From NCBI GenBank assembly GCA_021811365.1, contig JAJZPB010000002.1:8162-72161 (forward strand): a stretch of DNA of 64,000 bases, in the 5' to 3' direction. The stretch comes from a bacterium. Its GTDB lineage: Bacteria > Patescibacteriota > Minisyncoccia > Phycocordibacterales > Phycocordibacteraceae. A program made the position numbers and the translations under genes. This document shows, piece by piece, positions 27,019 to 43,520 of this stretch. The notes beneath the pieces were generated by a model. That model was given only the letters and a program-made list of their open reading frames with translations. It had not been told where the DNA came from and did no database searches. How positions within the stretch are numbered: the first letter of the stretch is position 1; the number at the start of each line of letters is the position of its first letter.

Positions 27019-27024
27019 AGCAAT

Positions 27025-27666: not shown

Positions 27667-27674
27667 CGCATTGA

Positions 27675-27766: not shown

Positions 27767-27880
27767 CTGCCGCCCGAAGACTTTAGTATCGGACAGACCC
27801 GAGAGTCTTATTTGTAGCCATTATTACGCAGCACGTTTTTAGAAAAGCTAGATAGGGCGAAGGGATTCCGAACTTTTCCC
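27767..27880 (+). repeat. att-like repeat copy b
   Basis: Near-identical by eye to 26510-26620 over about 110 nt, including the ...cgcagcacgtttttagaaaagctagatagggcgaaggg tail. Confidence 0.7.
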
Positions 27881-27918
27881 TGAAATTCTAATCGATCGGC
27901 AATGCTACGATTATAGTC

Positions 27919-28593
27919 ATGAAGAACCCCGCGCTAAAGCTTTTCACGATGACGGCCATCTCTTTGGCCGTCATCTCACTTGCACTATTCCTTTCTGCGG
28001 GCACGCTCGCATACTGGCAAGCATGGACGTATCTCGCGGTGACACTACTCGCGAGCGTGCCGTACGTACGGATCATGCTTAAGGACCCGGTGCTTCGCGA
28101 AGGCAGAACGAAACTCGGTCCGCTCGCTGAGAAACGGCCCATCCAGAAAATCATCGTCGCGCTCTCAGGATTGCCGGGCATCGCTTTGTTCATTGTGCCC
28201 GGTCTCGACCATCGCTTCCACTGGTCAAGTGTGCCCTTCGGACTGATGCTGGCAGGAGATGTACTTATTTTCGTGAGCATGTGGATGGTGTACCGCGTTG
28301 TGAAAGAAAACTCCTTTGGTTCGGCAACGATCGAGGTGACCGAGAATCAGAAGGTCATTTCCACCGGCCCCTATGCCATCGTGCGCAATCCTATGTATGC
28401 GAGCGCACTCGTGTATTTCATCGGCATGTCCTTTGCGCTCGGCTCCTACTGGACTCTGGTTCCTGCTGCACTCACGACACTCGGTTTCGTATGGCGGCTC
28501 TTCGACGAAGAGAAATTTCTCTCCGCCAACCTCTCGGGCTACAAAGAATACTGCGCCAAAGTTCGTTGGCATCTCGTGCCGGGAATTTTTTAA
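27919..28593 (+). CDS. Isoprenylcysteine carboxyl methyltransferase (ICMT) / phospholipid methyltransferase family membrane protein
   Basis: Multi-TM protein with a C-terminal ISTGPYAIVRNPMYASALVYFIGMSFALGS...E motif, characteristic of the ICMT/PEMT superfamily. Confidence 0.8.
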   Translation: MKNPALKLFTMTAISLAVISLALFLSAGTLAYWQAWTYLAVTLLASVPYVRIMLKDPVLREGRTKLGPLAEKRPIQKIIVALSGLPGIALFIVPGLDHRFHWSSVPFGLMLAGDVLIFVSMWMVYRVVKENSFGSATIEVTENQKVISTGPYAIVRNPMYASALVYFIGMSFALGSYWTLVPAALTTLGFVWRLFDEEKFLSANLSGYKEYCAKVRWHLVPGIF

Positions 28594-29376
28594 TTGAGTG
28601 CAATGACCCTATTCTTGCCTGAATTCTCCATCCTTTTTCTCGCCTCGATTGTCGGCACGGCGGCCGTTGTTCCGTATAGCTTGCGGCTATTGAGATCGTC
28701 CGCGCAAAAGAAACCTTTGAAGATATCCGTTCCGATACTAACTCTTCTATCGGTGGTTCAGACTGCAGTTCTCTGTGGAATCGCGATTGCGGTAGGCTTG
28801 CTTGCATCTCACACAGTCGCACTTGGTGCTCCATACATTGAAGCAATACTCGCCAGCACACCCCTTCCTTCAGGTGTCGGTCTTGAGATCGCGGTTGCTT
28901 TCGGCGTTCTTGCTGGAGCAGTTCTTTTGATCGCAGATTTGTTCTTCCTGCCGTACTGGCCCCAACCGATTCTTGATGCGGCAAAAAGTACGACTATGCT
29001 GGAAAATTTCCTCGCAGCTTTCTATGGCGGTATCAACGAAGAGCTGTTGATGCGCCTGTTTGGGTTTTCTGTGCTCGTCTGGCTCCTGTCGTTTGTATGG
29101 CAGCCGAACCCGCTTATCTTTTGGAGCGTAAACGTCGTGATGGCGATTGTGTTCGGTATCGGCCATTTGCCTGCGCTGAAAGCACTGGTTGGTAACATAT
29201 CGGGGGTAATGCTTGCGCGAACACTGATCCTCAATGCTCCGGTCGGGCTTGTGTGCGGCTGGCTATTTTGGACATACGGCATAGAAGCTGCGATCATCGC
29301 GCACTTCTCGGCAGATATTGCGTATCACGTTTTTGGGACAGTAGTACTTCGGCGCAAGTTGGAGGTGGCAAATTAA
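28594..29376 (+). CDS. CPBP family intramembrane glutamic endopeptidase (CAAX protease / Abi domain)
   Basis: The three CPBP motifs are present: EELLMRLFG (EExxxR), FGIGHL (FxxxH), HFSADIAYH (HxxxN/D-like). Starts one nucleotide after the ICMT stop. Confidence 0.8.
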   Translation: MSAMTLFLPEFSILFLASIVGTAAVVPYSLRLLRSSAQKKPLKISVPILTLLSVVQTAVLCGIAIAVGLLASHTVALGAPYIEAILASTPLPSGVGLEIAVAFGVLAGAVLLIADLFFLPYWPQPILDAAKSTTMLENFLAAFYGGINEELLMRLFGFSVLVWLLSFVWQPNPLIFWSVNVVMAIVFGIGHLPALKALVGNISGVMLARTLILNAPVGLVCGWLFWTYGIEAAIIAHFSADIAYHVFGTVVLRRKLEVAN

Positions 29377-29384
29377 AACAGTCG

Positions 29385-29470
29385 AACCCCGACGAGATTC
29401 GAACCAAACACCGAAAATAAGGAAGCTATATTCTAAGCCATGGCGAAGGTACGACCCGAGAGCTTTCGTA
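29385..29470 (+). repeat. Conserved ~90-nt element (copy 2) immediately upstream of att-like copy c
   Basis: gagattcgaaccaaacaccgaaaataaggaagctatattctaagccatggcgaaggtacgacccgagagctttcgtatcc, closely matching 27675-27766. Confidence 0.55.
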
Positions 29471-29570
29471 TCCCTTCGCCTCCGCCAACACACTTTTTTA
29501 TCGGTGTCAACCCGAAGGCCCAAATCCACTACCCTCAGACTTTTTTATCGTGCAGACCCGGGAGCCTTAT
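29461..29570 (+). repeat. att-like repeat copy c (two tandem degenerate cores)
   Basis: cgccaacacacttttttatcggtgtcaacccgaaggcccaaatccactaccctcagacttttttatcgtgcagacccgggagcc. Closely matched by copy g at 51861-51960. Confidence 0.6.
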
Positions 29571-29636
29571 ACTGGAAAGCACCATGTTTTGTGCATGGTG
29601 CTTTCTGGGATAGCCGTGCTTCTCCAGGTACCTTTG

Positions 29637-29906
29637 TTACTTGCCCTTGTGCTGGATTTTGTCCGATTTCTCGCGGTTTTCCTCCCAATGCAGCGGCTGC
29701 AAATTTCGCGCATGGTCCGTTCCGCCATTGGCCACTGGATTTTTATGGTCGATTTCCCAACCATAATCACCACACGTGCCATATGAGCCAAAACGAATCG
29801 TGTTTCCGTATGTGTCTTTCCGCCACGTGTCAGGATCTTTGCCGCGTATCTCTCGGCCCTTCCCCCAGACCTCCTCGACTTGTTTTCTCGAAGCCATATG
29901 CCTCAA
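29637..29906 (-). CDS. HNH endonuclease
   Basis: GYGWEIDHKNPVANGGTDHARNLQPLHWEEN fits the HNH motif (His-metal finger, paired Asn). Confidence 0.75.
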   Translation of the reverse strand: MRHMASRKQVEEVWGKGREIRGKDPDTWRKDTYGNTIRFGSYGTCGDYGWEIDHKNPVANGGTDHARNLQPLHWEENREKSDKIQHKGK

Positions 29907-30029
29907 TGTCTTAATGCTGATAAACCTGATTCATCGACCACAAGGGGGACCCTTGACCGCCAGGTGGTATCTATAATATACTTCCCGCTATGGGAGTCAA
30001 CATGGAGGTACTAAGAGCGAACCACGGCT

Positions 30030-30317
30030 ATGCAATTAGTTGGAAAAGACACCTTGGATACCTTCAAAAATGAGCATCCCGATGCGCGCTCACAGGTCGA
30101 AGCGTGGGAAGCCGAAGTGGAGAACGCTAGTTGGGGAACACCGCACGACCTCAAACGGCGTTATCCGAAGGCAAGCCTTCCCGGTAAACAACAAGCCATA
30201 TTCGACATTTGCTGGAACAGGTATCGGTTGTGGGTCAAGGTCGCATACAACACCGGTATCGTGATAGTGAAGGCGATCGGTACACACCAAGAGTACGAAG
30301 AGTGGCCTATTGAATAG
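30030..30317 (+). CDS. higB: Type II toxin-antitoxin system HigB-family toxin (RelE-like mRNA interferase)
   Basis: 95 aa ending ...LWVKVAYNTGIVIVKAIGTHQEYEEWPIE, like the HigB C-terminus (THKEYD). The antitoxin gene starts 3 nt downstream. Confidence 0.75.
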   Translation: MQLVGKDTLDTFKNEHPDARSQVEAWEAEVENASWGTPHDLKRRYPKASLPGKQQAIFDICWNRYRLWVKVAYNTGIVIVKAIGTHQEYEEWPIE

Positions 30318-30320
30318 CAT

Positions 30321-31532
30321 ATGGACGATATAAAAATTATAAAAACCAAAGAAGACTACGAACGCGCGCTTCGACTCGTCGAGACGCTTGTCGATCGCGA
30401 CCCGGAATCCGGTTCCGCAGACGCAGATCGACTCACACTTCTCACGGCGCTCGTCAAGGAATACGAATCGAAGAGCTTTCCGGAGCATCTCCCCGACCCG
30501 ATTGAGGCAATCAAGTTCCGCATGGAGCAGGAAGATCTTAAGCCTGTGGATCTTGTGCCATATATCGGCAGTGCGGGAAGAGTCTCTGAAGTACTTTCTG
30601 GGAAACGTCAGCTCACGCTTGACATGGTGAGGGCGCTTTCTGCCGGTCTTGGCATTCCAGCGAAAGTTCTCATACAAAAACCGTCAAGAGATTTCGAATC
30701 ACAGAATTGGGATACTGCGCTCGTTAAGACGATGGAGCGGCGCGGCTACTTCGGCAAGAAGACAATGAAAGATCACACCAAATCCGAACTGATAAGCGGA
30801 TTCTTCGCAGCATTCGGTCACATGCAACCAGCCGTTTTATATCGGAAGACAAGCTTTCGGTCCGCGCCACGTACCGACAATAATGCCCTGCTCGCTTGGG
30901 GGAAGCGTGTGTTGCAGAAATCAGAGAAAATAAAAGTGCCAGCGAAATTCAAAGACGGCACGGTAACGCTCTCATTTATGTGCGCGGTACTGAATCTGAG
31001 TACCAGAGATAAAGGACCTGTGCTTGCACGAGATTACCTTAAAAAACACGGCATTAAATTAGTCATTGAGCCGCATCTCCCAAAAACACACCTCGATGGT
31101 GCCACGTTCTTCGCATTCAAGGCGAATCCCGTTATAGGACTCACTATCCGTCACGACCGACCTGATAACTTTTGGTTCACATTGATGCACGAGCTTGCAC
31201 ATGTTGCCCTCCATTACAACAACGGTGTTGAATCCTTCTATGACGAAAAATTGCAGGATAAGGACGGTATAGACATTGATCCCAAAGAGCAGGAGGCAGA
31301 CAAACTTGCAGAGGAATCTATTCTTCCGGAAAGCAAATGGGAGACGAGCGCGGCGAAGTCAACGCCGAACCAGTTCTCTACCGAAGACTTAGCTAACGAG
31401 CTCGGCGTACAGACCGCAGTCATAGCGGGAATGATTCGGTTCAAGCATCAGAACTTCTTCTACCTGAATAAAATCGTGAACGACGAGACTCTATCCGTTA
31501 AGAAGTATTTTGCCGAGGAATTTACCGACTAA
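30321..31532 (+). CDS. HigA-like HTH (XRE) antitoxin fused to ImmA/IrrE-family zinc metallopeptidase domain (COG2856-like)
   Basis: The N-terminal ~100 aa resemble HigA antitoxins (MDDIKIIKTKEDYERALRLVETL...). The C-terminal domain carries an HEXXH zinc site (LMHELAHVALH) in an ImmA/IrrE-type context. Confidence 0.8.
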   Translation: MDDIKIIKTKEDYERALRLVETLVDRDPESGSADADRLTLLTALVKEYESKSFPEHLPDPIEAIKFRMEQEDLKPVDLVPYIGSAGRVSEVLSGKRQLTLDMVRALSAGLGIPAKVLIQKPSRDFESQNWDTALVKTMERRGYFGKKTMKDHTKSELISGFFAAFGHMQPAVLYRKTSFRSAPRTDNNALLAWGKRVLQKSEKIKVPAKFKDGTVTLSFMCAVLNLSTRDKGPVLARDYLKKHGIKLVIEPHLPKTHLDGATFFAFKANPVIGLTIRHDRPDNFWFTLMHELAHVALHYNNGVESFYDEKLQDKDGIDIDPKEQEADKLAEESILPESKWETSAAKSTPNQFSTEDLANELGVQTAVIAGMIRFKHQNFFYLNKIVNDETLSVKKYFAEEFTD

Positions 31533-31535
31533 ACT

Positions 31536-32660
31536 ATGGCTACCATTAAACCCTACATCCCAATATTGCGATGGCGACCAGCTGAAATAAAGGCGCTGGA
31601 GAAGCTTTTCCCGCAAGACCGAGGGAATATCACGCCGTTAATAGAATTTGTGATGCCCGCTCCGTCAATCACTCGTAAAGGCGACAAAATCATCATTACA
31701 AAGACGCGTAAGGAGAAATTCTTGGAAGAGCTCCCGGATGTTGCCAAGAATTTGTTGAAGTCATGCGGTCAGATGCACATGCTTATCGACGTCCAGCAGC
31801 TCGACGCAGACATCAGGGCATCTTCGCTTGAGCAAATTCTCGCATCGTCGAAGGATTTGGATCTGTTTTCAATTCCTGTAACGTACATTATTCCTATGAT
31901 GGGCACGAGCGCCGATGCGGCTACCCGTGCTGCTGCCGTAAAATACGCCAAATCGAGCGGACATGGACTCTGCATACGTATCGATAAGTCACATCTCAAA
32001 GAGCCCAACCTGTCGTCTCAAATCGCTACCTTCGTCAAGGAGAACCAGCTCGATATAGGGAAAATAGATCTACTCATCGACCTGCGCGTCATTGATCAGG
32101 ATACGGCCGTCGCTGATGTTGTGAAGAAACTGAAGATCCTCCCGGACTTGCAAAAGTGGCGTTCATTCATCGTATCGGGAGGTGTGTTTCCTAAAGATTT
32201 GTCCGACTTTCTCCCGGGCGATGTACACCAGCTAGAGCGGTTTGATTGGAAACTGTGGAATAAGCTTCAAAAGACAGACTTACTTCGTAAGCCGTTGTTC
32301 TCCGACTACACCATTCAACATCCGTTCTATGAGTATGTAGCTGCCATTGGCAGTGCGAGCGTGCGATACACGGATGATGGTGAATGGTGGATTTTCCGGG
32401 GGACGAAGCCGGGTCATATCAACAGCAAGACTGGTAAAAAAGGGCCCGGGCGAGAGCAATACATCGGCCATGCACGCACGCTCATCAATCGAGTTTTCTA
32501 CAAAAAGTCTGGTTTTAGTTTTGGTGATGCAGAAATCACTCGAATTGCAGCAGCTGAAAATCAAAAGCCGGGGAGCCCGGCGACCTGGCTTACCATTGGT
32601 ATCAACCACCACATCACGCTAGCTGCACGTCAGACCGCCAGTCTTGCCGGGAAGATTTAA
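31536..32660 (+). CDS. Beta-protein-like (sce7725-like) protein, partner of the ImmA/HTH gene
   Basis: 374 aa beginning MATIKPYIPILRWRPAEIKALEKL. From recollection this matches the N-terminus of the 'beta protein'/sce7725 family that pairs with COG2856 ImmA genes. Family assignment is from memory, not a search. Confidence 0.5.
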   Translation: MATIKPYIPILRWRPAEIKALEKLFPQDRGNITPLIEFVMPAPSITRKGDKIIITKTRKEKFLEELPDVAKNLLKSCGQMHMLIDVQQLDADIRASSLEQILASSKDLDLFSIPVTYIIPMMGTSADAATRAAAVKYAKSSGHGLCIRIDKSHLKEPNLSSQIATFVKENQLDIGKIDLLIDLRVIDQDTAVADVVKKLKILPDLQKWRSFIVSGGVFPKDLSDFLPGDVHQLERFDWKLWNKLQKTDLLRKPLFSDYTIQHPFYEYVAAIGSASVRYTDDGEWWIFRGTKPGHINSKTGKKGPGREQYIGHARTLINRVFYKKSGFSFGDAEITRIAAAENQKPGSPATWLTIGINHHITLAARQTASLAGKI

Positions 32661-33228
32661 GAACATCCCACACGTACTCTTTAAGAGAGTCGATCTTCTG
32701 CGATTCAGCGAGCCGTTGATACACAGCCTCTCGTGGTTTTGTTCGAACACCATCGGCTTTGCCCAAATCCTCAAGCCTCTCGAGAGCCTCGTGCCTCCAT
32801 AGCAGTCGTGCAATCGAAATACTATCCTGCTCAAGATTATTTTGTGGACTCCTGATGTGGTTAAAAAAGACCGTACCATTCTCGTCCACGCGGGCCGTCT
32901 CGATACCCCACCAATCGGGCACCATTCTAAACGCATCCACGAAATGTTTGCTGCCCACTACAAGGGTTACCTGGTCGAATATGCTGTTGTAGGCATGCAT
33001 TTGCTCTGGCAAGCGGGTAAGCGTATCGCGATCACTCTTGATCTCGAAACCCCGCAGAGAACCGTTCACGACGGCGACGTCGATCCTAGCAGCTCCATGC
33101 CAGACTCCTAACTCAGGTATGACGCGGTAATTCGGATAGTCAACGACGAGCCGATTGACCAACGCTTCCCGAATGATTGTGTCGTTTGTTTGATTCATTT
33201 CTTGAAGATCAATACGACACGGGTCCAT
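32614..33228 (-). CDS. sce7726-like protein with PD-(D/E)xK nuclease-like motif
   Basis: VIPELGVWHGAARIDVAVVNGSLRGFEIKSDRD fits a D...E-x-K restriction-endonuclease-fold core. Convergent with the beta-like gene and overlapping it by about 47 nt. Confidence 0.5.
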   Translation of the reverse strand: MDPCRIDLQEMNQTNDTIIREALVNRLVVDYPNYRVIPELGVWHGAARIDVAVVNGSLRGFEIKSDRDTLTRLPEQMHAYNSIFDQVTLVVGSKHFVDAFRMVPDWWGIETARVDENGTVFFNHIRSPQNNLEQDSISIARLLWRHEALERLEDLGKADGVRTKPREAVYQRLAESQKIDSLKEYVWDVLKSSRQDWRSDVQLA

Positions 33229-33291
33229 GGATATATTTTACACGTAACATGCGCTGGCCGGATAGTCGCTCGCTGTGGATGCGACGCGCAT

Positions 33292-35772
33292 TCACATCTC
33301 CACGACTTTCATCGCTTCGTCGCCGTAGTGGTTGATGACCTTTACGGCGATCTTGCCTGTCTTAGGCTTCGGGAACGAACGTGATGTAGTCGAATGGAGT
33401 TCATCCCACACATCCTCCGGAATGTCCGCCTTCAGGGCCTTTTTGAGCTTCTCATACGGGTTGTCTGCCCCTAGGAAATACGCGTGAGTGACGAAAAATG
33501 CTTCGTCACTGTAGTTCGTGTCGATGAACCACGCGGCAATATCGTGCTCGAGCTCACCATCACCGGATGAGCGGATTTCGCTTTTCACGGGGTCATATAC
33601 GTCCATACCGACGATTTCGACGGTGACACCATCTTTCGATTCCTTCACATTTACCTGCGGCTCGCCAAAGGCAATGAATAGGTTGCCGGAGCCGGTCTTC
33701 TTGAGGAGATCGCCCATCGAGAGATCTGGGTTGATTTTCACCTTCATAAGGCGCAATCCCTCCTGTTGTTCGGATTCGGTAAACGCTGAGGCGTCAAAAG
33801 AAGTTGCTGCGACCACGAGCAAATCGGCAAAGTTCTTCGCTACGCGGATAGCGTCGCGGACGAAGTCATCGTCAACGCTACCGAATTCAGGACCGATGGC
33901 GACCGCGACCTTTTTAAGGCCCTCGACAGTCTTGTATTCGCCAACCGCTTGCACTTCGGGTCCACTCGGCAGGATCTCAAGATTCTCGAATTCGACACGG
34001 GCGCCTTTCTCACCGGTCTGCACCCCCGCAGACCTTAGGTTCTCAACAACTGTTTCGACGAATCGCTCCGACGCGATCATTTCCTGTGCATCGGATACAC
34101 GATGTGGCGCTAGCGACTCGACCGTAAAAGGACCGGAGACGCGTACGACATCCTTATTTTCTAGGGGCTGGTCATAAAGCACTTCCTCTTCGGGCTGCTC
34201 ATCATTCGCAAGCGACCTGAGTGTCACGTGCGGGACGGTCTTGTAGATGAATCCATCTGCCACGTTTGCTCTCTCGTCGCTCCCGTTTTCTTTGAGCTTA
34301 AAGTATGGGTATTGAGCTGTCATGAGCCGCGTGCGAGCAAGTGCGAGCGCAACGCGTGACGTGTCAGTTGTGATCCAGCGTCGGCCCCATTGCTCGGCAA
34401 CATATGCAGTCGTCCCTGACCCACATGTTGGGTCTAGGACGATATCTCCCGGATCGGTTGTCATTAAAATACATCGCCGAATAACCTCTGTGTTTGTTTG
34501 AACAACGTATTTTTTGTTGTCAGCACCAACGGTATCTCCCCAGGAGGCCAATAATTTGCTTACGGGGTAGTCTTCCTCGAAGTACCGGTAGGTTAGTCTG
34601 TTTCCTTCAACTTGAACCCTACCCTTCATTACAAGCCTCTCAAGGCCTTCTCTGGTGGTTCCGTAACCCGGCGGTCCCGGCGAATATTTCTTTCCTTCGA
34701 ATTCAAAATCGAATTGGCCGCTTGGGTTCGTGCCAGATGCGATGAGAGATTTCAGTAAATAAACCTGAGCGCCTTTTGGTAGCAGCTTGTGGTTATTTAG
34801 TTGCTCACGTGTCATTTGATGATGAGAACCATCTGGCATGCGATACCACTTGTAATGGAAATCACCCTCAGTGATTGTCTCAACAAAAAGACCACGGTAT
34901 TTAAGCGAGTCCTTGTCTTTCGCGTACCAAATTATGAAATCGTTCATTTGTTCCAAGAATTTTGCGCCGAGGGGCATTGTCTTTTTCCTGAATGGGATAA
35001 GCGCAATGAAATTCCCGCTTCCGAAGACCTCGTCCATGAGTACTCTAACCAGATGAACATTGGCATCATCAATCTGCACAAAGCACGAGCCGCTTTCTGT
35101 CAGAAGATCACGGGTGACAAGGAAGCGATCGCGCAAATACGAAAGGTAAGAATGGGTACCGAGCTCCCAAGTGTCGCGGAATGCCTTGATCTGTTCCGGC
35201 TGGCGGATCATGTCGTCGAGCTTGTTATCCTTCACGTCACGCTTGCGCGTTGAGACCTGCCAATTGCTACCGAATTTGATGCCGTATGGCGGATCGATGT
35301 AGACGGTTTGTACTTTCCCGCGCATACCCTCCTTCTCGAGAAGCGAATTCATGACGACGAGCGAGTCGCCCAGGATCATGCGGTTCTTCCAGTTATCTTC
35401 GTGCTTATAGAAATCGACCGCCTGATGCGCCTGGTCGGCCGCGAAGTCGCCAAAGAGCGAGATCATCGGCAATTCTTCATTAGCCCGCATCTTGAGCCGC
35501 GCGATGATGCCTTCCGGAGCGATATTTTCCTGTACGTAAATCGGTACAGTTGAGACGCTCATCTCAGCGCCCTCTTCCTCCTTACCAGCCCAGACGAGCT
35601 GCGGATCGAGCGACGGATCGTATGCGTATTTTTTCTTCACTTGCTGCTTTTCGCGCGGAGAAAGATCCCGCGATTCCTCCTGCGTCGGGATGCGTGTACG
35701 CGTCGTCTTGTGTTTGTAGCTTTTTACAGCTGCCGCCGTTGATAGTTCTGGTGTTTTCTTTCGTGATGCCAT
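33292..35772 (-). CDS. mod: Type III restriction-modification system methyltransferase (Mod), N6-adenine specific
   Basis: LVWAGKE N-terminal box, DPPYG (motif IV), and DPTCGSGTTAYVA (SAM-binding motif I) in the permuted order typical of type III Mod. Confidence 0.9.
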   Translation of the reverse strand: MASRKKTPELSTAAAVKSYKHKTTRTRIPTQEESRDLSPREKQQVKKKYAYDPSLDPQLVWAGKEEEGAEMSVSTVPIYVQENIAPEGIIARLKMRANEELPMISLFGDFAADQAHQAVDFYKHEDNWKNRMILGDSLVVMNSLLEKEGMRGKVQTVYIDPPYGIKFGSNWQVSTRKRDVKDNKLDDMIRQPEQIKAFRDTWELGTHSYLSYLRDRFLVTRDLLTESGSCFVQIDDANVHLVRVLMDEVFGSGNFIALIPFRKKTMPLGAKFLEQMNDFIIWYAKDKDSLKYRGLFVETITEGDFHYKWYRMPDGSHHQMTREQLNNHKLLPKGAQVYLLKSLIASGTNPSGQFDFEFEGKKYSPGPPGYGTTREGLERLVMKGRVQVEGNRLTYRYFEEDYPVSKLLASWGDTVGADNKKYVVQTNTEVIRRCILMTTDPGDIVLDPTCGSGTTAYVAEQWGRRWITTDTSRVALALARTRLMTAQYPYFKLKENGSDERANVADGFIYKTVPHVTLRSLANDEQPEEEVLYDQPLENKDVVRVSGPFTVESLAPHRVSDAQEMIASERFVETVVENLRSAGVQTGEKGARVEFENLEILPSGPEVQAVGEYKTVEGLKKVAVAIGPEFGSVDDDFVRDAIRVAKNFADLLVVAATSFDASAFTESEQQEGLRLMKVKINPDLSMGDLLKKTGSGNLFIAFGEPQVNVKESKDGVTVEIVGMDVYDPVKSEIRSSGDGELEHDIAAWFIDTNYSDEAFFVTHAYFLGADNPYEKLKKALKADIPEDVWDELHSTTSRSFPKPKTGKIAVKVINHYGDEAMKVVEM

Positions 35773-35784
35773 ATGCCTATTGTA

Positions 35785-38712
35785 CTAGCTTTGGTTCGCG
35801 ATGACTTCGCGTATTGTTTTCTGCGTCTCGTGAATGTCGCGGATCTCGACCATCGCCCAACGACCGAAGCCGCCGTGGTTATTGACCGCCGGAATCCAGA
35901 GGTCATTCGTGATCTTCACCTTCGATACTTTTTTCTGATCCTTCTCGCCGGTTACCTCGATAAGTAAATTCAGCACGTCGCCGTTCGGCAAGCGGATCCG
36001 CGCGATGTAATCGGGGTAGTAGAGATGGATCGCGCCGTTGCGCTCGTACGGGATGGTGAAATCGAGCTTGTAGTTCTTCGCATACGAGATGACTTCCTCC
36101 ATGTCTTCGAGTCGCTTCGCGACGCCCTGTTCCCAAACCTCGGTGTCGGCGACGACGTAGTTTAAATGGCTCTTCGTCGTCTCGAAGACCGGCCGTGTCG
36201 TGAGAAAATCGACGCCCGCGGTTGAGCCGCGCGGGTTGCGACTGGAAAGGACGGGGAGGAGTTTGCGCTCGCCCTCCTGATCGTCGAGATTCGCTTTCAC
36301 GATCGCGTGCTGGGTCTTCTCGGATGCGCCATGGAGATATTCGCCAATTGAGAGATAACCGATGAACATGTTGTCCTTAAGGATGACCTGCGTCCGCACG
36401 TACTTCTCGGCAATCTTGCGGAGCTGTGGGTAGAGCCAGTATTTCGATGCCCCGGACGCGTCGCGGTAATACCGCTCAAGGAGTTCCTTCGCCAGCATCT
36501 CGACGACCGTACCTTCCCGTCGTTCGCGGATCTTTTCCATCGTCTCGGTCGTCTCCGCGCCGATGATGCCCTCAAGCACGACCTTCGTCGTCTCGTTTTC
36601 GATGACCGTTTTCGAGTCGTCGGTAAATTTCGCCGCAAGTCTTTTCTCGTCGATTTCATAGTGATAGCCCTCGACGCGCGGGAATTCGATCTGGTATGTA
36701 GCAGCGCGTTCTGGAAGCGTCTTCACGTGATGGTACTCGACTGGCTCCGGAGGCGGCGTCGGCGTACCGCTCGAATCCCAAAGAATGAACGGCACGCCGT
36801 ACACTTCCGCGTACTCGGCGCGGAATAGGCCGTTCTCGTCCGGCGTGTAGTCGACGCGGCGGAGCGCACGCCCGACAACCTGCTCGCAGAGGAGCTGTGT
36901 CGAAAAGGCACGGACGCCGAGAATATGCGTCACCGTGTTCACGTCCCATCCTTCCGTGAGCATGGAGACCGATACGACGCACTTGATGTTTTCGCCAAGG
37001 CGTCCCGGCTTGCCGACCGTATTCATAACCTCTCGGAGGATCTCCTCATCCGTCGGCTCATCGCGGCCTGGGAAGCGGCGCTTGTATTCTTGCTTGAATT
37101 CGTCGATCTCTCGCGCGAATGTTTTCTTGAACTCAGGCGTCACACTCTCGCCACTCTCGAGACTCGCGCTGTCGATAAGGAGGGTGTTGGGCTTTTCGCG
37201 GAGCGCGAAGCCGTCCTCGTTTCGGAATACGTCGAGATGTCCTTTTTCGATTGATACCTGGCCGCTCGCAGTCTGCGATTCGTATCCGGCTATCCAGTCG
37301 TATACAAGCTTCGAAACCGCCATGTTGTTGCAGACAACAATCATCACGGGCGGCATGACGTTATGTCGCTTCTTCTTTTCCTCTTCGTATAGTTTGTAGT
37401 TTTTCTCGTAGCTGCCGTAAAGGGAGAGAAGCGCCGTCTCGAGTTTGCCCGGTAGACGCTCGGCCGGAAGCTCCTCGCGAATGTGTACCCAGAGATTCCG
37501 GAACTCCGGCAACGACTCGCGCCCGATACGATCGTCAGCGCTCGGAAGGCGCGGGATCTTTACGATGCCGCTTTCAAGGGCGTCGAGAAGCGAGAAATCG
37601 TATGTGACCCAGGGGAAAATCGTACCCTCAGGATAGCCGGAGCCCGAGAGGAAATACGGCGTCGCTGAGAGGTCGATGACCGCGTTCACGGTTGAACGCG
37701 ACGCGAGTGTCGTGAGCCCCGCGAGCCAGACTCTCGCGGCCTTGTTGTTTTCAGCCGCCTCGGCGTGCTCATCAGCAGAGAGCTTTTCGTCCGTAGGTTT
37801 CTCCTGGTAGCAGTGATGCGCCTCGTCGTTGATGACAAGAATGCGCGACTTGCCGGCGACCTGCTTGAAGACGCGTCGCGCCATCGCTTCCGGCGTTTCC
37901 TGTACGACATCCTCGTTGATGAGCCCTGCGGCTTTCATGACGCCACCGATCGCAAAGCGAGGATTCTGACGAAGCACCATCTGCTGGTAGTTGACGATAA
38001 GAATGTTCGCGCGATTGAGATCCTCCATGTCGGTAATCGTCACCACTTCGCGCTCGCGGTAATAGTTGTGCGGATTGTTCGGTTGGAGTACGTTCAGACG
38101 ATCGCGAATCGTGATGCCTGGCGCGACGACCACGAACGTATCCGTGAAGCGCGTGTCCTGCGGATATCGAATTTTGTTGAGCGTGTTGTACGCAATGATC
38201 ATCGCCATGACGACGGTCTTGCCGGAGCCGGTCGCGAGCTTAAACGCGAGGCGGTAGAGACCGCCGTTCGCATCGCGATTGACCGTCTTGAGCTCGTTGA
38301 TGATCCAGTGCTCGCCGACTTTCTCCGCGACCTCGTTTATATAAATGAGTGTTTCGAGCGCTTCGATCTGACAAAAGAAAAGGCGGTTCTCGCGCGTGTC
38401 GTCGGTCCAGTACCGGAGGAGGTCTTGGGTTGTCTTGGTCGTGCCGGAATATCCAGCCTTCCGCCATTCGGTCACTTTCACCCGAATCTTGTTGACGAAT
38501 TCGTTTTCCTGAAGGCGCTCGCTGCTCCACGCCTGCGCCGCAGGGTCGTGCCGTGCCTGGGCAACACCACGCCCACGCGGACGGGCTATGGGGATCTGAA
38601 CCGTGCTCGGACGCCGCGACTCGATAACCTCTTCAGTCAGGCCGCGTTCGTCGGATTTAAAATAGCGGCCTGGTTCCGCATAGGGAGAATTGAGAATCGG
38701 CGAGATTTTCAT
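35785..38712 (-). CDS. res: Type III restriction enzyme Res subunit (SF2 helicase plus C-terminal endonuclease)
   Basis: Walker A (ATGSGKT), DEAH box (INDEAHH), helicase C motifs (TEGWDV, QVVGRALR). Its stop lies 13 nt upstream of the mod start. Start placed at MKISPILNSPYAEPG (38710-38712). Confidence 0.9.
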   Translation of the reverse strand: MKISPILNSPYAEPGRYFKSDERGLTEEVIESRRPSTVQIPIARPRGRGVAQARHDPAAQAWSSERLQENEFVNKIRVKVTEWRKAGYSGTTKTTQDLLRYWTDDTRENRLFFCQIEALETLIYINEVAEKVGEHWIINELKTVNRDANGGLYRLAFKLATGSGKTVVMAMIIAYNTLNKIRYPQDTRFTDTFVVVAPGITIRDRLNVLQPNNPHNYYREREVVTITDMEDLNRANILIVNYQQMVLRQNPRFAIGGVMKAAGLINEDVVQETPEAMARRVFKQVAGKSRILVINDEAHHCYQEKPTDEKLSADEHAEAAENNKAARVWLAGLTTLASRSTVNAVIDLSATPYFLSGSGYPEGTIFPWVTYDFSLLDALESGIVKIPRLPSADDRIGRESLPEFRNLWVHIREELPAERLPGKLETALLSLYGSYEKNYKLYEEEKKKRHNVMPPVMIVVCNNMAVSKLVYDWIAGYESQTASGQVSIEKGHLDVFRNEDGFALREKPNTLLIDSASLESGESVTPEFKKTFAREIDEFKQEYKRRFPGRDEPTDEEILREVMNTVGKPGRLGENIKCVVSVSMLTEGWDVNTVTHILGVRAFSTQLLCEQVVGRALRRVDYTPDENGLFRAEYAEVYGVPFILWDSSGTPTPPPEPVEYHHVKTLPERAATYQIEFPRVEGYHYEIDEKRLAAKFTDDSKTVIENETTKVVLEGIIGAETTETMEKIRERREGTVVEMLAKELLERYYRDASGASKYWLYPQLRKIAEKYVRTQVILKDNMFIGYLSIGEYLHGASEKTQHAIVKANLDDQEGERKLLPVLSSRNPRGSTAGVDFLTTRPVFETTKSHLNYVVADTEVWEQGVAKRLEDMEEVISYAKNYKLDFTIPYERNGAIHLYYPDYIARIRLPNGDVLNLLIEVTGEKDQKKVSKVKITNDLWIPAVNNHGGFGRWAMVEIRDIHETQKTIREVIANQS

Positions 38713-38784
38713 GTAGATAAAGGGCCAAGCTAGAAAAGAATACTTAGCGCAGTACTTGCATATTGGACCATTTTTCATAATATT

Positions 38785-40107
38785 TCAATCAGCCGAAATT
38801 GCGCCTCTAGTTACGCGCAGCTTTGTCTTTAGGCAGCCCAGCAGTTCTCGCTTCTCCTCCTTCGAACCGTCGACCAGGATATATTTGGCGTAGGTTGAGA
38901 CATCGATTTCTTGATCGGGACTTGCCGGGTTCGGCAGCCCAAGTACGGTCCGTTGGAAGCGGCCATAACGCCTTAGCTCATCCCGCAACTTCGCTTTTAC
39001 GTCGAGCTCGTTGAAGTCGATCTTGTCGAATATCTTTATAAGCTGCTCGATGAGCTCCTCCTCACGCAGATATTTGTTCCCCTTGCAGTAGTGGTCCTTG
39101 GAGCGGTTGCAGCCGTAGTAGACATAGCGGGCGGTGGTGCCGTTTTTGCGTGGCTTGTATTTCTCCTCCGCGCTTATGCCGGAGCCGCACTGGCCGCAGG
39201 TCATGAGCCGCGTGAAGGCGAACTCCCTGCTCTCGCGCACTACGACCTCTCGGCGCAGCTGCGACTGCACCTGGTCGAAGAGCTCTTTCGTAATCAGGGG
39301 CTCGTGCTTGCCCTGGTACCAATTGCCACTTCCTTTCGGAAACTCGAAGGTGCCGCAGTAGAAGGTATTCTGGAGGGTGCGGAACACATTGCTGAATGCC
39401 AGGTTCTTGTTCCCTTTCGTTTTGAAGTTGAGCTCGAACTTGAGCCAGTGGTGCACTTTCCGGCCCGACCATTTCTCGTATGCCACCTTTTCGAACATCT
39501 TGCGCACAACCGGTCCGCGTTCGGGGTCGATAACCATCTGACAGCGCTTCTCCATATCTTTCTGGGAGCGGTATCCGGTCGGCGGCACGGTTGGCCACAG
39601 TCCCATCTCCACTCTCGCCCTGAGCCCTCGCTTCACGTTTATGCCACGATTATCGTTCTCAAGCTTTGCCTGACCTCCCAAGATCGTGAGGAGGAATTTT
39701 TCATTCGGATTGTTTGAGAACCGTTGCCCGAAGGTGCGTATTTCCTCGAGGTACCCGGCGTCCATAAGGTCTACGACACGGCCGAGGTCGCCAGCGTTCC
39801 TGCTGATGCGGTCCGTTGCCCAGGTAAGGATGCCGTTGTACTTGCCGCTTTTAATTTCTTCCACGATCTCGTTGAAGACCGGCCGCTGGCCGGTATCCTT
39901 AGCCGAATGGCTTTCCCGCTTGAGCGCCACCACCTCAAGGCCGTCGCGCTCCGCGAGCGCAAGCATCTCTTTGATTTGGCTATCTATACTCAGGACCTGC
40001 CGTTCCTCGCTCTCCGTGCTCTTACGAGCATAAAGGCAGAATTTGACCTTAATGGGGGCTTGTATCTGCTTGGCTGGGAATCCTGCTGGTGCTTCTATTG
40101 TGTTCAT
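38785..40107 (-). CDS. Large serine recombinase (resolvase/invertase N-terminal domain plus recombinase and zinc-ribbon domains)
   Basis: YARKSTESEERQVLSIDSQ gives the catalytic Ser in the resolvase-type N-domain. GILTWATDRISRN, a recombinase domain, and a Cys cluster (CGQCGSG...CNRSKDHYC) follow. Confidence 0.9.
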   Translation of the reverse strand: MNTIEAPAGFPAKQIQAPIKVKFCLYARKSTESEERQVLSIDSQIKEMLALAERDGLEVVALKRESHSAKDTGQRPVFNEIVEEIKSGKYNGILTWATDRISRNAGDLGRVVDLMDAGYLEEIRTFGQRFSNNPNEKFLLTILGGQAKLENDNRGINVKRGLRARVEMGLWPTVPPTGYRSQKDMEKRCQMVIDPERGPVVRKMFEKVAYEKWSGRKVHHWLKFELNFKTKGNKNLAFSNVFRTLQNTFYCGTFEFPKGSGNWYQGKHEPLITKELFDQVQSQLRREVVVRESREFAFTRLMTCGQCGSGISAEEKYKPRKNGTTARYVYYGCNRSKDHYCKGNKYLREEELIEQLIKIFDKIDFNELDVKAKLRDELRRYGRFQRTVLGLPNPASPDQEIDVSTYAKYILVDGSKEEKRELLGCLKTKLRVTRGAISAD

Positions 40108-40330
40108 ACAACACCATTGATGACGCAGACCCCCTAATGAGTCTAGGGCGTCCTGAGAGCCCGAGAAGTTGGTAACCCCTTCGAGCTAGACAAAGACAGC
40201 GGCCTCACACTTGGCGAAGCGCAGAAGGTTCAGAATGTCGCCGACGAACTCGGCCTCGATCTCGACGATGCGTTTGAGATCTCAGAGGCGCCGTAGCGCC
40301 ACGACCTAGGACCTTGCTAAAATAGCAGCT

Positions 40331-40465
40331 ATGGAAAAGATCGGCGACGAATGGCAAGTATGTAGCAAAGGACACCAGTATCGCGGTAGCGGTTCATGCC
40401 CCGTCTGTCGACCGAAACGCAAGAAGCGAGACGCGAAGGGTGGGCAAAAGGGTTCTCCTAAGTGA
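40331..40465 (+). CDS. Possible small zinc-ribbon protein (44 aa), below the ORF-track length cutoff
   Basis: MEKIGDEWQVCSKGHQYRGSGSCPVCRPKRKKRDAKGGQKGSPK has a C..H...C..C arrangement and a basic tail. Speculative. Confidence 0.25.
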   Translation: MEKIGDEWQVCSKGHQYRGSGSCPVCRPKRKKRDAKGGQKGSPK

Positions 40466-40973
40466 GCCTCACTTCTCCAGCTTCACGAACGACACTTCGA
40501 TACTGGCTTTCTTGAGGGAGGGTATTTAAGTCCTCTTCCCGGCAAGATGTGCGACCCATTGGTTGCCCATTGGTTGCCCAAGATTCTGATTGAGCATTGT
40601 TCGTGGGCTCAGCATTTCAAATGCCTGACTCAGCCGTTCTCGCAGAGTATGTGCAGACGGCGTTGCAGATAGCCACCCGTCGAGTGACTGGCCGTTGTCT
40701 TTGGTGAACACATGCCCCATCCCCTTTTTTGCGCAAAGGGCGCAGCACATACGTCTACATTCGTGAGCATGGGGCGCTCGCGGTTGCTCTTGGTGGTTTC
40801 GAGCTTCTTGATGTCGTCGTTCCAGGAGTGTCGGATAATGCTGCTCTGACTCTGCCAGTCAACAGAGCCCCGTACGAGGATATGTAAAAACGGCAATTAC
40901 TATCACGGGCGAGCAACGGGACTACTGCTATTGCTTCCTGTGAACGCTGACTCACTATAGTAACCACTACGCT

Positions 40974-43472
40974 CTACGTACGGCCCTGTCGGTAGTAAAA
41001 GACCTTCGCAAAATCAAGGGCAAACAAATAAACGGCCATAAGGGCAAAGATTGTGATAACCGATCCGGTTGGTAGTGATGCAAAAGAAAGCCAAGATTGA
41101 AACTGGGGAATATAAACTATGGCCAAGGAAAACACCGACGCAAGCAGAAATGATACGTTTAGTAGGTGAGATGGCGCTCTCGTTTTCCAAAAGTGGCCTC
41201 TGTTACGAATCGCGTAAAACACGACAAACGACAGGAATGTAATGAATACATAGAGACTTGTTTGTGCCTGCTTTTCCGGTTGCGACTTTACGAGCACAAA
41301 GTAAAAGATCTCAAACAATGCCGTCGGCACACCGAGCACTAACGACAACAGCATGATCTCTTTCATGTTGTGTTTTTCCGGTCGCATGACCTCGGCGTCA
41401 TCAACGGTATCTGTAGATACCGCAATGAGAGGGATATCGGCAACGACAGACGTTAGAAGCACCTGTACCGGAAGCAACGGCAACTCAGTGGACAAGAGAT
41501 ACAAGACGCCGAGCGCAATGAAATTGCCGAAATTACTGACCATGGTATACGCGACGTATTTATTGATGTTTACGAAAATCGATCGGCCATACTTGATACC
41601 GTTCACAATAACCTCAAGACTTTTATTAAGAAGTACTATATCGGAATTTTCTTTCGCAATGTCGGTTGCCGTATTAACGGCAATAGCAACATCCGCTAGT
41701 TTCAGCGCAGGTGCGTCATTGATCCCATCACCCTGATAGGCGACGACGTATTCCTTCTTGAGTGCGGCGATGATATTAAACTTTTGCGCAGGCGAGACCC
41801 GCGCAAAGACATTTGAGCTGAGTACTGTAGCGCTGAATTCTTGAGGAGACAATGTTTCCAGCTCATCTCCGAGATATACGCGCTCTCCTTCCTGTACAAG
41901 CCCAATTTGTTTGCCAACATACTCAGCCACCTCTCTGCTATCGCCGGTCAACACTTTAATCTCGATGCCCAATTTCTGAGCATGTTGAATTGTTGTCTTA
42001 GTGCTCGGTCGTAATGGGTCCTCAAAGCTGGCGTAGCCCAGGAAGTGCATTCCGTGTTCGTTTTTCAAAATATCAAAATCGTCTGTATAGGTGATTTCTT
42101 TGTATGCCAAAGCAAGGTGATGCAGGCCCGACTTCCCTTCTTCAATGAGCGTGCGGGAATATTCCGACTTTTTACCGGATGTGGAAATTTCAATCAACAT
42201 TTCCGGAGCTCCTACAGCAACCAGGTATTGCGTATGAGTCTTCGCATCCTCAAGAATGACCCTGTTTCTGCGAACGTCAGGATCAAATGGTATCTCTTTG
42301 ACGATGGAAAGTTCTTTTGCTTCCCGGGCGACCTGTTCCTGGACGTAGTTAAGAAACGCGTCGTCGTACGAATTTTGAGATCTCCGTTTCTTACCCTTAA
42401 GCGGCGTTATGGTTGCGTACATCAGCTTCTCGAACAAGTCGTCGTCGTTTGTGGCAATTGAGCGAATCACCATTTTATTTTCGGTAAGAGTGCCGGTCTT
42501 ATCGGTGCACAGTAGGTTTACGTTACCAAGATCCTCCAAGGACGAGAGGCGCTTTACGACCACATGTTTCTTTGCAAGCTTTATAGCGCCAATTGAAAGC
42601 GTTACCGTTGAAATCACTGGCAGCACCTCGGGTACAACCGCGACAGCGAGAGCAATGACGAACAACAGCAAGCCGGGTATATCGTAGCGGCCGGAGCTGA
42701 GAAGTAGTTTGACAATGAATATGAGAGTCAACCCAATGAGAGTGGCCCGCACCAAAAGTGCGCTCAATGACTGAAGAGACTTCTCGTACTGAGTTTGCTT
42801 CTTAGTTTCTGTAGATAACTTTGCAATCGTCCCCAGTTCCGTATCTCTTCCTGTCGCATACACCACGCCAGTGCCGACTCCTTTTTCGATACTACTGCCG
42901 GTATAAAGAAGTGTTTCCGATGGCGCATTCGATACGGGCGAGACGCGTTTAATAACAGGAACCGATTCACCGGTAAGCTGCGATTCATTGACTTGCAGGT
43001 AGTCGGCCTCAAGAAGCCGCATGTCGGCTGGAACGATGTCTCCTTCGCGTACTGTGAGTACATCGCCAGGAACAACCTGGGAGTCGTCAAGAAGTCTTAT
43101 TTTGCCATCGCGTTTCAACCTAACCTGTTTCGAGATGAATTGTGATAATTTTTCGATTATTTTTTCCGACTTATATTCTTGATAGAAACCGAGCGACGTA
43201 TTGATGAGGAGAATCAACAAAATGATGGTGCCATCGGTGTAGTCGTGGATGCTATACGAAATGACACTTGCTATGACGAGCAGGTATACTAGTGAACTTT
43301 TCAGTTGGCGACCGAGAACGACTAGGGCATTAGCAGTTTTCTTGCCCATGACATTTGGACCATACTTAACAATGCGTTTTTCTGCCTCCTTCTGATTAAG
43401 CCCGCTGAACGAGGTCTGGAGACGGTCTATGAGCTCGGATTGACTGAGTTGGCGTGCTAGATCTTTATTCAT
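40974..43472 (-). CDS. Cation-transporting P-type ATPase, MgtA-like (magnesium-importing type)
   Basis: CTDKTGTLTEN phosphorylation site, TGDS, GDGINDAPALK hinge, ten TM helices. The N-terminus LSQSELIDRLQTSFSGLNQKEAEKR resembles MgtA. Confidence 0.85.
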   Translation of the reverse strand: MNKDLARQLSQSELIDRLQTSFSGLNQKEAEKRIVKYGPNVMGKKTANALVVLGRQLKSSLVYLLVIASVISYSIHDYTDGTIILLILLINTSLGFYQEYKSEKIIEKLSQFISKQVRLKRDGKIRLLDDSQVVPGDVLTVREGDIVPADMRLLEADYLQVNESQLTGESVPVIKRVSPVSNAPSETLLYTGSSIEKGVGTGVVYATGRDTELGTIAKLSTETKKQTQYEKSLQSLSALLVRATLIGLTLIFIVKLLLSSGRYDIPGLLLFVIALAVAVVPEVLPVISTVTLSIGAIKLAKKHVVVKRLSSLEDLGNVNLLCTDKTGTLTENKMVIRSIATNDDDLFEKLMYATITPLKGKKRRSQNSYDDAFLNYVQEQVAREAKELSIVKEIPFDPDVRRNRVILEDAKTHTQYLVAVGAPEMLIEISTSGKKSEYSRTLIEEGKSGLHHLALAYKEITYTDDFDILKNEHGMHFLGYASFEDPLRPSTKTTIQHAQKLGIEIKVLTGDSREVAEYVGKQIGLVQEGERVYLGDELETLSPQEFSATVLSSNVFARVSPAQKFNIIAALKKEYVVAYQGDGINDAPALKLADVAIAVNTATDIAKENSDIVLLNKSLEVIVNGIKYGRSIFVNINKYVAYTMVSNFGNFIALGVLYLLSTELPLLPVQVLLTSVVADIPLIAVSTDTVDDAEVMRPEKHNMKEIMLLSLVLGVPTALFEIFYFVLVKSQPEKQAQTSLYVFITFLSFVVFYAIRNRGHFWKTRAPSHLLNVSFLLASVFSLAIVYIPQFQSWLSFASLPTGSVITIFALMAVYLFALDFAKVFYYRQGRT

Positions 43473-43520
43473 ATTGCGACTGGCAGGATATCAGTCTCAG
43501 TATACTCGACCTAGGATAGG

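Follow-up and report, generated by a model that had tools for sequence, protein, structure and literature searches.

The window analyzed here is a stretch of 64,000 nt from a Patescibacteriota genome (assembly GCA_021811365.1, contig JAJZPB010000002.1, positions 8,162 to 72,161), in which a tRNA-Trp gene is followed by an array of cassettes, islands and repeats containing a single gene for a large serine recombinase (LSR). The relationship of this recombinase to the tRNA gene is the subject of this report. The left 26 kb of the window consisted of housekeeping genes (topA, relA/spoT, parB, serS and miaA), and the nearest match to part of this region amongst the fetched loci was a metagenome-assembled genome (MAG) of Candidatus Adlerbacteria, at 65-72% nucleotide identity. 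Past the tRNA-Trp gene (26446-26518), the G+C content dropped in patches from about 0.56 to 0.46-0.53. The window is contained in a metagenome contig of 125 kb, ENA ERZ27237050 k141_473462, whose record positions exceed the window positions by 20494. The array extended from the end of the tRNA-Trp gene (26518) to at least 53.5 kb, and its features are listed in Table 1.

The last 17 nt of the tRNA-Trp gene (26502-26518, GTCCTGGTGGGCCCGCC) constituted copy 1 of a direct repeat. The exact 17-mer recurred once in 74 kb, at 49804-49820, and the two copies enclosed 23.3 kb (26519-49803), a composite of two cassettes of membrane-protein genes (E1 and E2), the recombinase-bearing island E3 and a 1-kb remnant (E4). 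The sequence that follows the tRNA-Trp gene was found again at 27775, 29488/29537, 48802, about 49821 and 51886/51935, and in truncated form at 53492. Each repeat of the array consisted of 7-25 nt resembling a tRNA 3' end and of the motif CGAAGACTTTTGTATCGGACAGACCCGAG or a variant of it. The tRNA-like parts were Trp-like at 48779, 49804, 51878 and 53469, and Ser-like (CGCCTCCGCCA) at 29477. These repeats were far above chance, as a 21-nt core with up to three mismatches gave four matches versus none in 100 shuffles. Junction J1 had a more elaborate composition, with an inverted tRNA-like fragment (27682-27698), a degenerate motif copy, the core CTGCCGCC and a P' motif (27775-27805).

The 19-kb segment of the first-pass annotation, between repeats at about 29.48 and 48.80 kb, was real. 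The attL and attR suggested there (29.47 and 48.79 kb) are plausible junctions of E3, but the sole perfect direct repeat of a tRNA end is 26502-26518/49804-49820, which bounds the larger composite. Beyond that composite lay E6, a deleted paralogue of E3. Its left end (J5) was a decayed tRNA-Trp end with a double P' motif 95% identical to that of E3, in line with the 95% identity between J2 and 51886-51944. Then came a truncated ParB-methyltransferase gene and, at 77-97% identity, the right-end module of E3 in a second copy; the internal 17 kb were missing, and E6 ended at J6 (53469-53507). A 23.3-kb composite enclosed by a perfect repeat, with older, decayed pieces beyond it, is the pattern expected of repeated insertion at one tRNA gene followed by decay.

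Table 1. Features of the tRNA-Trp array and of island E3, in window positions.
Feature	Position	Strand	Evidence or composition
tRNA-Trp(CCA), proposed target gene	26446-26518	+	ARAGORN; Rfam tRNA 69.7 bits
J0	26519-26549	+	P' element-end motif CGAAGACTTTTGTATCGGACAGACCCGAAGG directly after tRNA-Trp, attL-type
E1 cassette	26519-27774	+	No recombinase; DAGK 26626-27018(-), DUF1361 27025-27666(-)
J1 junction module	27676-27876	+	About 200 nt; 81-87% identical over up to 204 nt to junctions of locus L013
E2 cassette	27775-29476	+	No recombinase; PEMT/ICMT-like 27919-28593(+), 260-aa membrane protein 28594-29376(+)
J2, E3 left end	29477-29564	+	tRNA-Ser-type end CGCCTCCGCCA, then tandem P' motifs 29488-29518 and 29537-29564
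E3 island	29477-48801	-	19.3 kb between J2 and J3, no P' junction inside
HNH endonuclease gene	29637-29906	-	89 aa; PF01844, E 1.9e-5
PD-Lambda-2 A, HigB-like	30030-30317	+	PADLOC E 2.5e-35; Pfam
PD-Lambda-2 B, ImmA/M78 peptidase	30321-31532	+	PADLOC E 3.9e-133; Pfam
PD-Lambda-2 C, Beta_protein	31536-32660	+	PADLOC E 3.2e-42; Pfam
P4 cII-like protein	32614-33228	-	204 aa; PADLOC 'cll' E 2.2e-25; PF26915 precomputed
mod, Type III methyltransferase	33292-35772	-	MTase_III E 5.9e-208
res	35785-38778	-	ResIII PF04851 E 1.2e-11; REase_III E 2.1e-5 (weak match)
LSR	38785-40107	-	440 aa, full length; Pfam PF00239, PF07508, PF13408
Zinc-ribbon open reading frame	40332-40466	+	44 aa; divergent from the recombinase
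P-type cation ATPase, cargo	40974-43472	-	Pfam
Helix-turn-helix/small-terminase-like protein	45787-46230	-	Pfam; phage-like backbone
ParB_N-DNA methylase fusion	46220-47617	-	Pfam; phage-like backbone
J3, E3 right end	48779-48832	+	tRNA-Trp-like 3' fragment GTTTGAATCCCGAGTGGCCCGCC, then P' motif
J4, distal composite boundary	49804-49855	+	Exact 17-nt tRNA-Trp end (49804-49820), then degenerate P' motif
E6, deleted E3 paralogue	51878-53507	+	Double P' motif and right-end module shared with E3

The recombinase contained a catalytic resolvase domain (PF00239, E 9.3e-19, residues 25-169), a Recombinase domain (PF07508, E 6.3e-15) and then a Zn_ribbon_recom domain (PF13408, E 2.4e-7). Residues Y26, A27, R28 and the catalytic S30, together with the zinc-ribbon cysteines C304, C307, C333 and C341, were invariant among 32 relatives. 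The closest solved structures were those of SPbeta SprA (9dxd, E 2.4e-11, residues 26-354), the A118 integrase (4kis, E 1.2e-6) and TP901-1 (3bvp). These domains, invariant residues and structural homologues identify the protein as an intact LSR, a bona fide member of the family by every sequence criterion tested. According to Pfam it was encoded by the sole recombinase gene of the tRNA-Trp array, which agrees with the first-pass description of its island as the only plausibly self-mobile segment.

More than 8000 database relatives of the LSR were found at E <= 1e-20, and the best 120 were full length and 68-100% identical. The few relatives bearing source names came nearly all from Patescibacteria lineages, and a scan of one genome per species revealed relatives of 60-77% identity in at least 590 species-level genomes. 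The clade appears to be undescribed and is apparently spread over the Patescibacteria (Candidate Phyla Radiation, CPR) and their phages. As a side observation, several contigs held two copies of the recombinase family (the IMG/VR pairs L177/L178, L190/L197, L181/L211, L205/L216, L212/L220 and L240/L241, and likewise L048, L089 and L187); in some of these the second copy was 54% identical to the first, convergent with it and immediately adjoining. Such pairs may represent two stacked elements or a two-recombinase system.

The surroundings of the LSR gene were compared across 231 loci encoding relatives with 42-90% identity to the window LSR (83 from genomes, 80 from metagenomes and 68 from IMG/VR). 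A tRNA gene was located downstream of the LSR gene in 115 of the loci, and the first such tRNA was convergent with it in all 115, a result with a probability of about 2e-35 under random orientation. Five tRNAs were found in 1.46 Mb upstream of the LSR, compared with 184 in 1.17 Mb downstream. The distance between the two genes had a median of 1.8 kb and ranged from about 110 nt, observed several times, up to 8.1 kb. The layout of the window was alike, with tRNA-Trp on the plus strand and the LSR on the minus strand 12 kb apart. Amongst the 115 downstream tRNAs, 93 were tRNA-Ser, covering all five anticodons, and the rest were Trp, Asp, Arg, Asn, Gln and Glu; the non-Ser targets were mostly found among the more divergent IMG/VR relatives.

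A sequence motif accompanied the tRNAs nearest to the recombinase. The TATCGG..GACCC motif (..TTTnnTATCGGnnnnGACCCGAG..) followed 34 of 54 recombinase-proximal tRNAs, but among 44 other tRNAs from these loci it followed one, and it was missing behind nine further tRNA-Ser genes. It started 11-13 nt past the tRNA end in 77 of 81 cases, and it is part of the element and not of the tRNA. The variant found in the window occurred with 90-100% identity after tRNA-Ser(GGA) in L007 and L013, tRNA-Ser(CGA) in L008, tRNA-Ser(GCT) in L010 and tRNA-Trp in L011, in each case starting right after ..CCGCC and beside an LSR 74-77% identical to that of the window. Other subclades had motif variants of their own, for example ATTGACAACCTGTTAG.. 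and, for tRNA-Arg, ..GTGAGACnGACCGAG. In addition to the motif, the junction modules near 27.7 and 29.4 kb were shared, with 81-87% identity to three or four junctions in the tRNA-Ser array of L013. As both the motif and the modules are common to other genomes, the repeats that had been described as tRNA-derived are largely shared element termini: the description holds for the 7-25 nt of each repeat, while the longer part is a motif of the element end, found behind tRNA-Ser genes of other genomes as well.

The shared modules corresponded to window positions 27676-27876 and 29384-29565 and to L013 positions 12568-12734, 14160-14362 and 16991-17189. They combined an inverted tRNA-like fragment, internal GACCCGAGAGCTTTnGTATC sub-repeats and the core, and they separated recombinase-less cassettes in an integron-like layout. 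Folding of the post-tRNA motif was also considered. An RNA hairpin with two GACCC boxes was rejected, as RNAalifold predicted no pairs for 26 sequences, and a motif without conserved secondary structure is more likely a putative protein-binding site. Separately, long perfect palindromes were observed 60-100 nt past the recombinase-proximal tRNA in L096, L103, L104/L106, L078 and L087. These consisted of T-arm/acceptor-like sequence and its reverse complement (for example GGTTCGAATCCCTCCCTGG-CTCGA-CCAGGGAGGGATTCGAAC), with related ..GGGATTCGAAC.. sequences in the window near 26600 and 27860, and may be secondary recombinase sites or terminators.

Altogether, the comparative evidence suggested that the LSR clade consists of integrases that act at tRNA 3' ends, mostly those of tRNA-Ser and here that of tRNA-Trp, and that this activity produces the tandem array; we hold this to be quite probable. 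Given a clade that inserts at tRNA 3' ends, the LSR in the window probably built the island array there. The first-pass suggestion that the LSR acts on the tRNA-associated repeats is favored by the complete convergence, by the shared motif and by repeat-bounded elements in which the LSR is the only recombinase. The accompanying expectation, that serine integrases avoid tRNA ends, is sound in general but fails for this clade. Classically, it is tyrosine integrases that land at tRNA genes, and serine integrases are known for protein-coding targets.

The repeat-bounded elements were found in three relatives that had a direct repeat of the tRNA end beyond the LSR. In L070, a 17-nt repeat bounded an element of 4.5 kb, and a housekeeping Lyase_1 gene ended 14 nt outside it. 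The repeats of L010 and L050 were 16 and 19 nt long and bounded 6 and 12 kb, respectively, and the far end of the latter was followed by a terminator-like native flank. The LSR was the sole recombinase in all three, and Pfam searches of their open reading frames (ORFs) identified cargo and a ParB/helix-turn-helix (HTH) backbone but no tyrosine integrase.

These elements also bear on a different origin of the array, in which a tyrosine integrase, since lost or lying outside, inserted the islands, and the LSR is cargo or a local regulator, such as a resolvase or invertase of the restriction-modification (R-M) operon. Tandem arrays and direct repeats of 16-19 nt at tRNA 3' ends are what tyrosine integrases classically leave behind (Islander description, PMC4383910). 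The LSR is co-transcribed with res and mod, the three genes being co-directional with gaps of 6 nt (recombinase stop to res) and 12 nt (res to mod), and the two proteins adjoining the tRNA gene (202 and 314 aa, 24789-26367) had no Pfam match. Against this origin, neither Phage_integrase nor a transposase was amongst the precomputed Pfam matches for all called genes between window positions 6956 and 73857, a range reaching 10 kb past the right edge, and our own Pfam scans of the array agreed. The tyrosine integrase that the first-pass annotation had offered as an alternative, outside the window or lost, was not on record in this range. Phage_integrase was also absent from the families matched by at least two of 150 randomly sampled neighbor ORFs, the R-M genes had no flanking inverted repeats, and the convergence of all 115 LSR genes with the tRNA would go unexplained if the LSR were unrelated to the tRNA site. 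With the LSR alone in L070, L010 and L050, an origin through a tyrosine integrase appears very improbable.

A candidate for the site on the incoming element was identified in a 56-kb phage-like IMG/VR contig (L186/L243, UViG_3300025154_002045), which carried a tRNA-like end and the motif but no tRNA gene. Its gene order was terminase-like, Type I R-M, LSR, a pair of genes of a cyclic-oligonucleotide-based antiphage signaling system (CBASS), the site ..GGTTCTAACTTCGGGACATCGCCACCGCCA|GGACAATTTCTTATCGGAGCGACCC.., amidase, a 938-aa protein and a LysM protein. Phage-like genes thus lay on both sides of this site, which is a single case and a candidate for the attP that the proposed design would predict in a phage before integration. 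A search for circular IMG/VR contigs that would give attP directly found no terminal overlaps, and the window-type motif had no exact match in IMG/VR. This contig, together with the ParB-methylase and small-terminase-like genes, suggests that the clade serves temperate CPR phages and the islands derived from them, of which E3 would be one. It was also observed that the Type I R-M genes and the CBASS pair (Cap15 and CD-NTase) of L186 flank the LSR beside the candidate attP (about 3000-14060), which suggests that, in these phages, defense genes have a hotspot in the integration module.

In the proposed mechanism, attP on a phage or island would comprise a short stretch resembling a tRNA 3' end followed by the motif (..GACAATTTnnTATCGGnnnnGACCCGAG.. 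or variants). Recombination with the tRNA end would place the motif directly behind an intact tRNA, forming attL, and a copy of the tRNA end would stay at the far side of the element as attR. Because the tRNA end would be regenerated, further elements could enter, giving a tandem array in which every junction is a tRNA-end fragment followed by the motif. As inferred from these sequences, the window LSR would have catalyzed the array insertions and might still be able to move E3 or the recombinase-less cassettes. By analogy with what is presumed for staphylococcal cassette chromosome (SCC) elements, it could move E1 and E2 in trans, and in this sense might serve the whole array.

The crossover would take place in or beside the shared ..CCGCC end. 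The core common to all junctions was ..CCGCC(A/C), corresponding to the end of the acceptor stem, G73 and CC, and it fits the Ser/Trp/Asp target set because these tRNAs start with GG and have a G discriminator. One element variant was found beside intact tRNAs of four acceptor stems, which favors a crossover at or near the tRNA terminus over one in the T-loop. With a terminal crossover, the 16-19-nt repeats of the clean elements would mean that the other arm of the element mimics the tRNA end. If the left arms of attP and attB are alike, then attL resembles attP and attR resembles attB, and we speculate that this likeness could ease excision and further capture.

A number of observations weigh against a role of the LSR as the integrase of these elements. 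LSR att sites are short, have dyad symmetry around a 2-bp crossover and share no long identity. Here the repeats measure 16-19 nt and the flanking motif exceeds a canonical serine-integrase half-site in length, a pattern more typical of tyrosine integrases; the crossover could not be placed within the repeats, and the far ends yielded no inverted motif copy of the kind that dyad-symmetric LSR sites would predict. Most relatives had no recognizable far end within 10 kb, and probing for far ends with 24-nt tRNA-end sequences or inverted motif copies was mostly negative. In the window itself, J2 (Ser-type) and J3 (Trp-type), which flank E3, are not identical repeats. Some of the loci, from MAGs and metagenome contigs, had implausible taxon labels; we take the MAG titles naming phyla other than Patescibacteria to be binning or labeling noise. 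Finally, the closest relative (L006, 90% identity) shared only 1.6 kb with the window (38804-40412), namely the LSR gene, its leader and part of the 44-aa zinc-ribbon ORF, and the LSR module may have been shuffled into E3 by ordinary recombination.

The last observation could be taken further, such that the LSR mobilizes only a small module of its own (leader and gene, with or without the next downstream gene) that homes into tRNA-linked islands, the islands and cassettes having arrived otherwise. Straight after the LSR stop codon of L006, Type II R-M cargo replaced res and mod, a difference that implies an exchange of modules around the LSR gene. Cargo was highly variable on both sides of the LSR, and outside the gene conservation among relatives was confined to the 5' leader. 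The 1.6-kb unit, however, had no flanking repeats, and no att-like sequence was found at the breakpoints of homology between L006 and the window. Likewise, the first-pass annotation had raised the possibility of distinct att sites nested inside the segment, and none were found. The tRNA-end repeats of L070, L010 and L050 enclosed the LSR together with cargo, and in up to 29 of 80 genome loci the recombinase gene was preceded, on its own strand, by the ParB-methyltransferase/HTH pair. Independent homing of a small LSR module is thus an improbable account.

The leader mentioned above (40108-40190, minus strand) comprises about 80 nt directly 5' of the LSR ORF, with the form GTTACCAAC..GGACGCyCTrGACTC..TGCGTCAT..ATG, also written GTTACCAAC..GGGACGCTCTGGACTCCT..TGCGTCAT..ATG, and was kept in about 126 related loci, one per locus. 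A structured RNA was rejected for this leader, as 92 sequences gave three invariant pairs, no covariation and no Rfam match; between 26 and 54 kb of the window, Rfam revealed nothing except the tRNA. The leader is probably a protein-binding regulatory site, and is a candidate operator or autoregulatory element. The 44-aa zinc-ribbon ORF beyond it is a candidate for a partner of the recombinase, excision by serine integrases being controlled by a directionality factor.

The decay within the array raises the further question of whether it is a fossil, made up of immobile elements whose copies arose mainly from homologous recombination between repeats and from duplications and deletions. Such a history would agree with the deletion in the paralogue E6, with the decay of J5 and J6 and with the differences among junctions in their tRNA-like parts. 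Additionally, contigs from two other samples were 100% identical to the window across E3 and had no alternative junction. On the other hand, the LSR ORF is full length with every invariant residue present, and the 17-nt repeat at J4 is perfect. We regard a fossil array as rather unlikely, and it would in any case be compatible with an origin of the array through insertions by the LSR. Contig breaks in other samples (33170, 40426, 40485 and 44599) were considered as element ends and rejected, since the break at 33170 abuts the next contig and the others could not be linked to any att-like sequence. Amongst metagenome relatives, none was close enough to delimit E3, the best match being 73% identical.

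Apart from the recombinase, E3 contained defense cargo, a P-type ATPase, small ORFs and a phage-like ParB-methyltransferase/HTH backbone. The genes named in the first-pass annotation (HNH, HigB/ImmA/beta, res, mod and the serine recombinase) were all recovered at their coordinates with Pfam and PADLOC. The A, B and C genes of PD-Lambda-2 were contiguous and in the same direction (30030-32660), and PADLOC assigned them to this system. The mod and res genes, on one strand and 12 nt apart, make up a Type III R-M system with res directly upstream of mod as described before; one gene call starts res at 38712, as in the earlier description, in place of 38778. Frequent families among the 150 neighbor ORFs were Type I R-M subunits, other methylases, reverse transcriptases, UvrD/Gabija-like helicases, Shedu, CBASS parts, Beta_protein and P-type ATPases, which indicates that defense cargo is common but not universal beside the LSR. 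The P-type cation ATPases, odd company for defense genes, recurred beside the recombinase family in three of the 150 sampled ORFs in addition to the window.

Other observations concerned the noncoding and distal parts of the region. A 41-nt stretch (GGTTGCAAAACCTAGTAGAGATCAAAGGACTCCCAGTCA, 44564-44604) was 97.6% identical to positions 3744-3784 of an Adlerbacteria contig (L072). It was located downstream of the ParB-methyltransferase/HTH pair in both, and one Logan contig ended there; possible roles are those of a small RNA, an origin or a binding site. A sequence of about 130 nt was present three times at 85-93% identity, at 48519-48648 and 53203-53330, within the right-end modules of E3 and E6, and at 63870-63997. 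The last was rejected as a third E3 right-end module, being merely a 130-nt piece, isolated after a FeeM-like gene, with no junction motif. Past the last junction, the region 53544-63857 encoded an ABC transporter/FtsX/HlyD set, a nitroreductase-like protein, ThiF, an acyltransferase, two GDSL lipases, a phosphopantetheinyl transferase, a carrier protein and a FeeM-like N-acyl synthase. This cluster resembles a small locus for making and exporting a lipid or peptide natural product, and is possibly additional cargo of the islands.

Comparison amongst the loci gives good support to the proposal of a serine-integrase clade that has an unusual conserved target class and forms arrays. A literature search of limited coverage found no description of a tRNA-targeting serine integrase or of a CPR serine integrase. 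More tentatively, and at somewhat less than even chances, the clade may be a phylum-wide one of CPR bacteria and their phages that uses ..CC-G-CC tRNA ends (Ser, Trp, Asp) as attB and builds integron-like arrays, with recombinase-less cassettes, whose conserved junction modules of about 200 nt recur in distant genomes, captured and moved in trans by a single resident enzyme. If so, it would be the serine-recombinase counterpart of tRNA islands and integrons and a main route of defense-gene traffic in reduced genomes. A large, highly conserved serine-integrase clade with tRNA ends as its target would by itself explain how R-M, CBASS, PD-Lambda-2 and other defense systems move among tiny genomes. 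Searches for CPR islands would then have to change, because tools keyed to tyrosine integrases would miss such islands, and a first handle on the temperate phages of CPR bacteria would be gained. Serine integrases require no host factors, and with a near-universal tRNA sequence as attB they could possibly provide genetic tools for organisms that now have none.

In a survey of thousands of LSRs, the targets were grouped by the protein-coding genes they disrupt, and tRNA does not appear in the main text (PMC10083194). Phage-type large serine integrases (SPbeta SprA, A118/LI, TP901-1, Bxb1 and phiC31) have the same domain architecture as the window LSR and detectable homology to it, and in both the gene is located at one end of the phage or island, beside an att site. 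The window clade differs in targeting a tRNA 3' end and not a protein-coding gene, in its 16-19-nt junction repeats and long conserved flanking motif, and in the use of several tRNA species among close relatives. At 440 aa, the window LSR is at the short end of the family.

In SCC elements, the serine recombinases CcrAB or CcrC insert at the 3' end of a conserved gene (rlmH/orfX) that is not inactivated, and tandem composites have short direct repeats between their members, of which the recombinase-less ones are presumed to be mobile in trans. The array resembles these elements in its serine recombinase, its position at the 3' end of a conserved gene, its tandem arrangement and its recombinase-less members. 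This likeness is a functional analogy only, as the target is a tRNA and not rlmH, a single recombinase takes the place of the CcrA/CcrB pair, and the host phylum and the junctions are different. With Islander-type tRNA and tmRNA islands and prophages, the array has in common insertion at a tRNA 3' end, an intact tRNA, a displaced distal fragment and tandem accretion, but it lacks the tyrosine integrase (PF00589) that defines them, its sole recombinase being a serine recombinase. Integration into tRNA genes is ascribed to tyrosine integrases in the Islander paper (PMC4383910).

The nearest published parallel at tRNAs is provided by the tycheposons of Prochlorococcus, cargo elements arranged in tandem within genomic islands. 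An LSR is encoded by only a small minority of these (all but 910 of the 937 elements; 10.1101/2020.12.28.424599). They differ from the array in having mostly tyrosine recombinases, other hosts and other backbone genes. Finally, integrons and the array share an arrangement in which one recombinase gene lies beside ordered recombinase-less cassettes with a recurring site, here E1 and E2, and three or four such cassettes in L013. Integrons depend on the tyrosine recombinase IntI and on a folded single-stranded attC, whereas the window has a serine recombinase, and RNAalifold gave no conserved structure for its recurring site.

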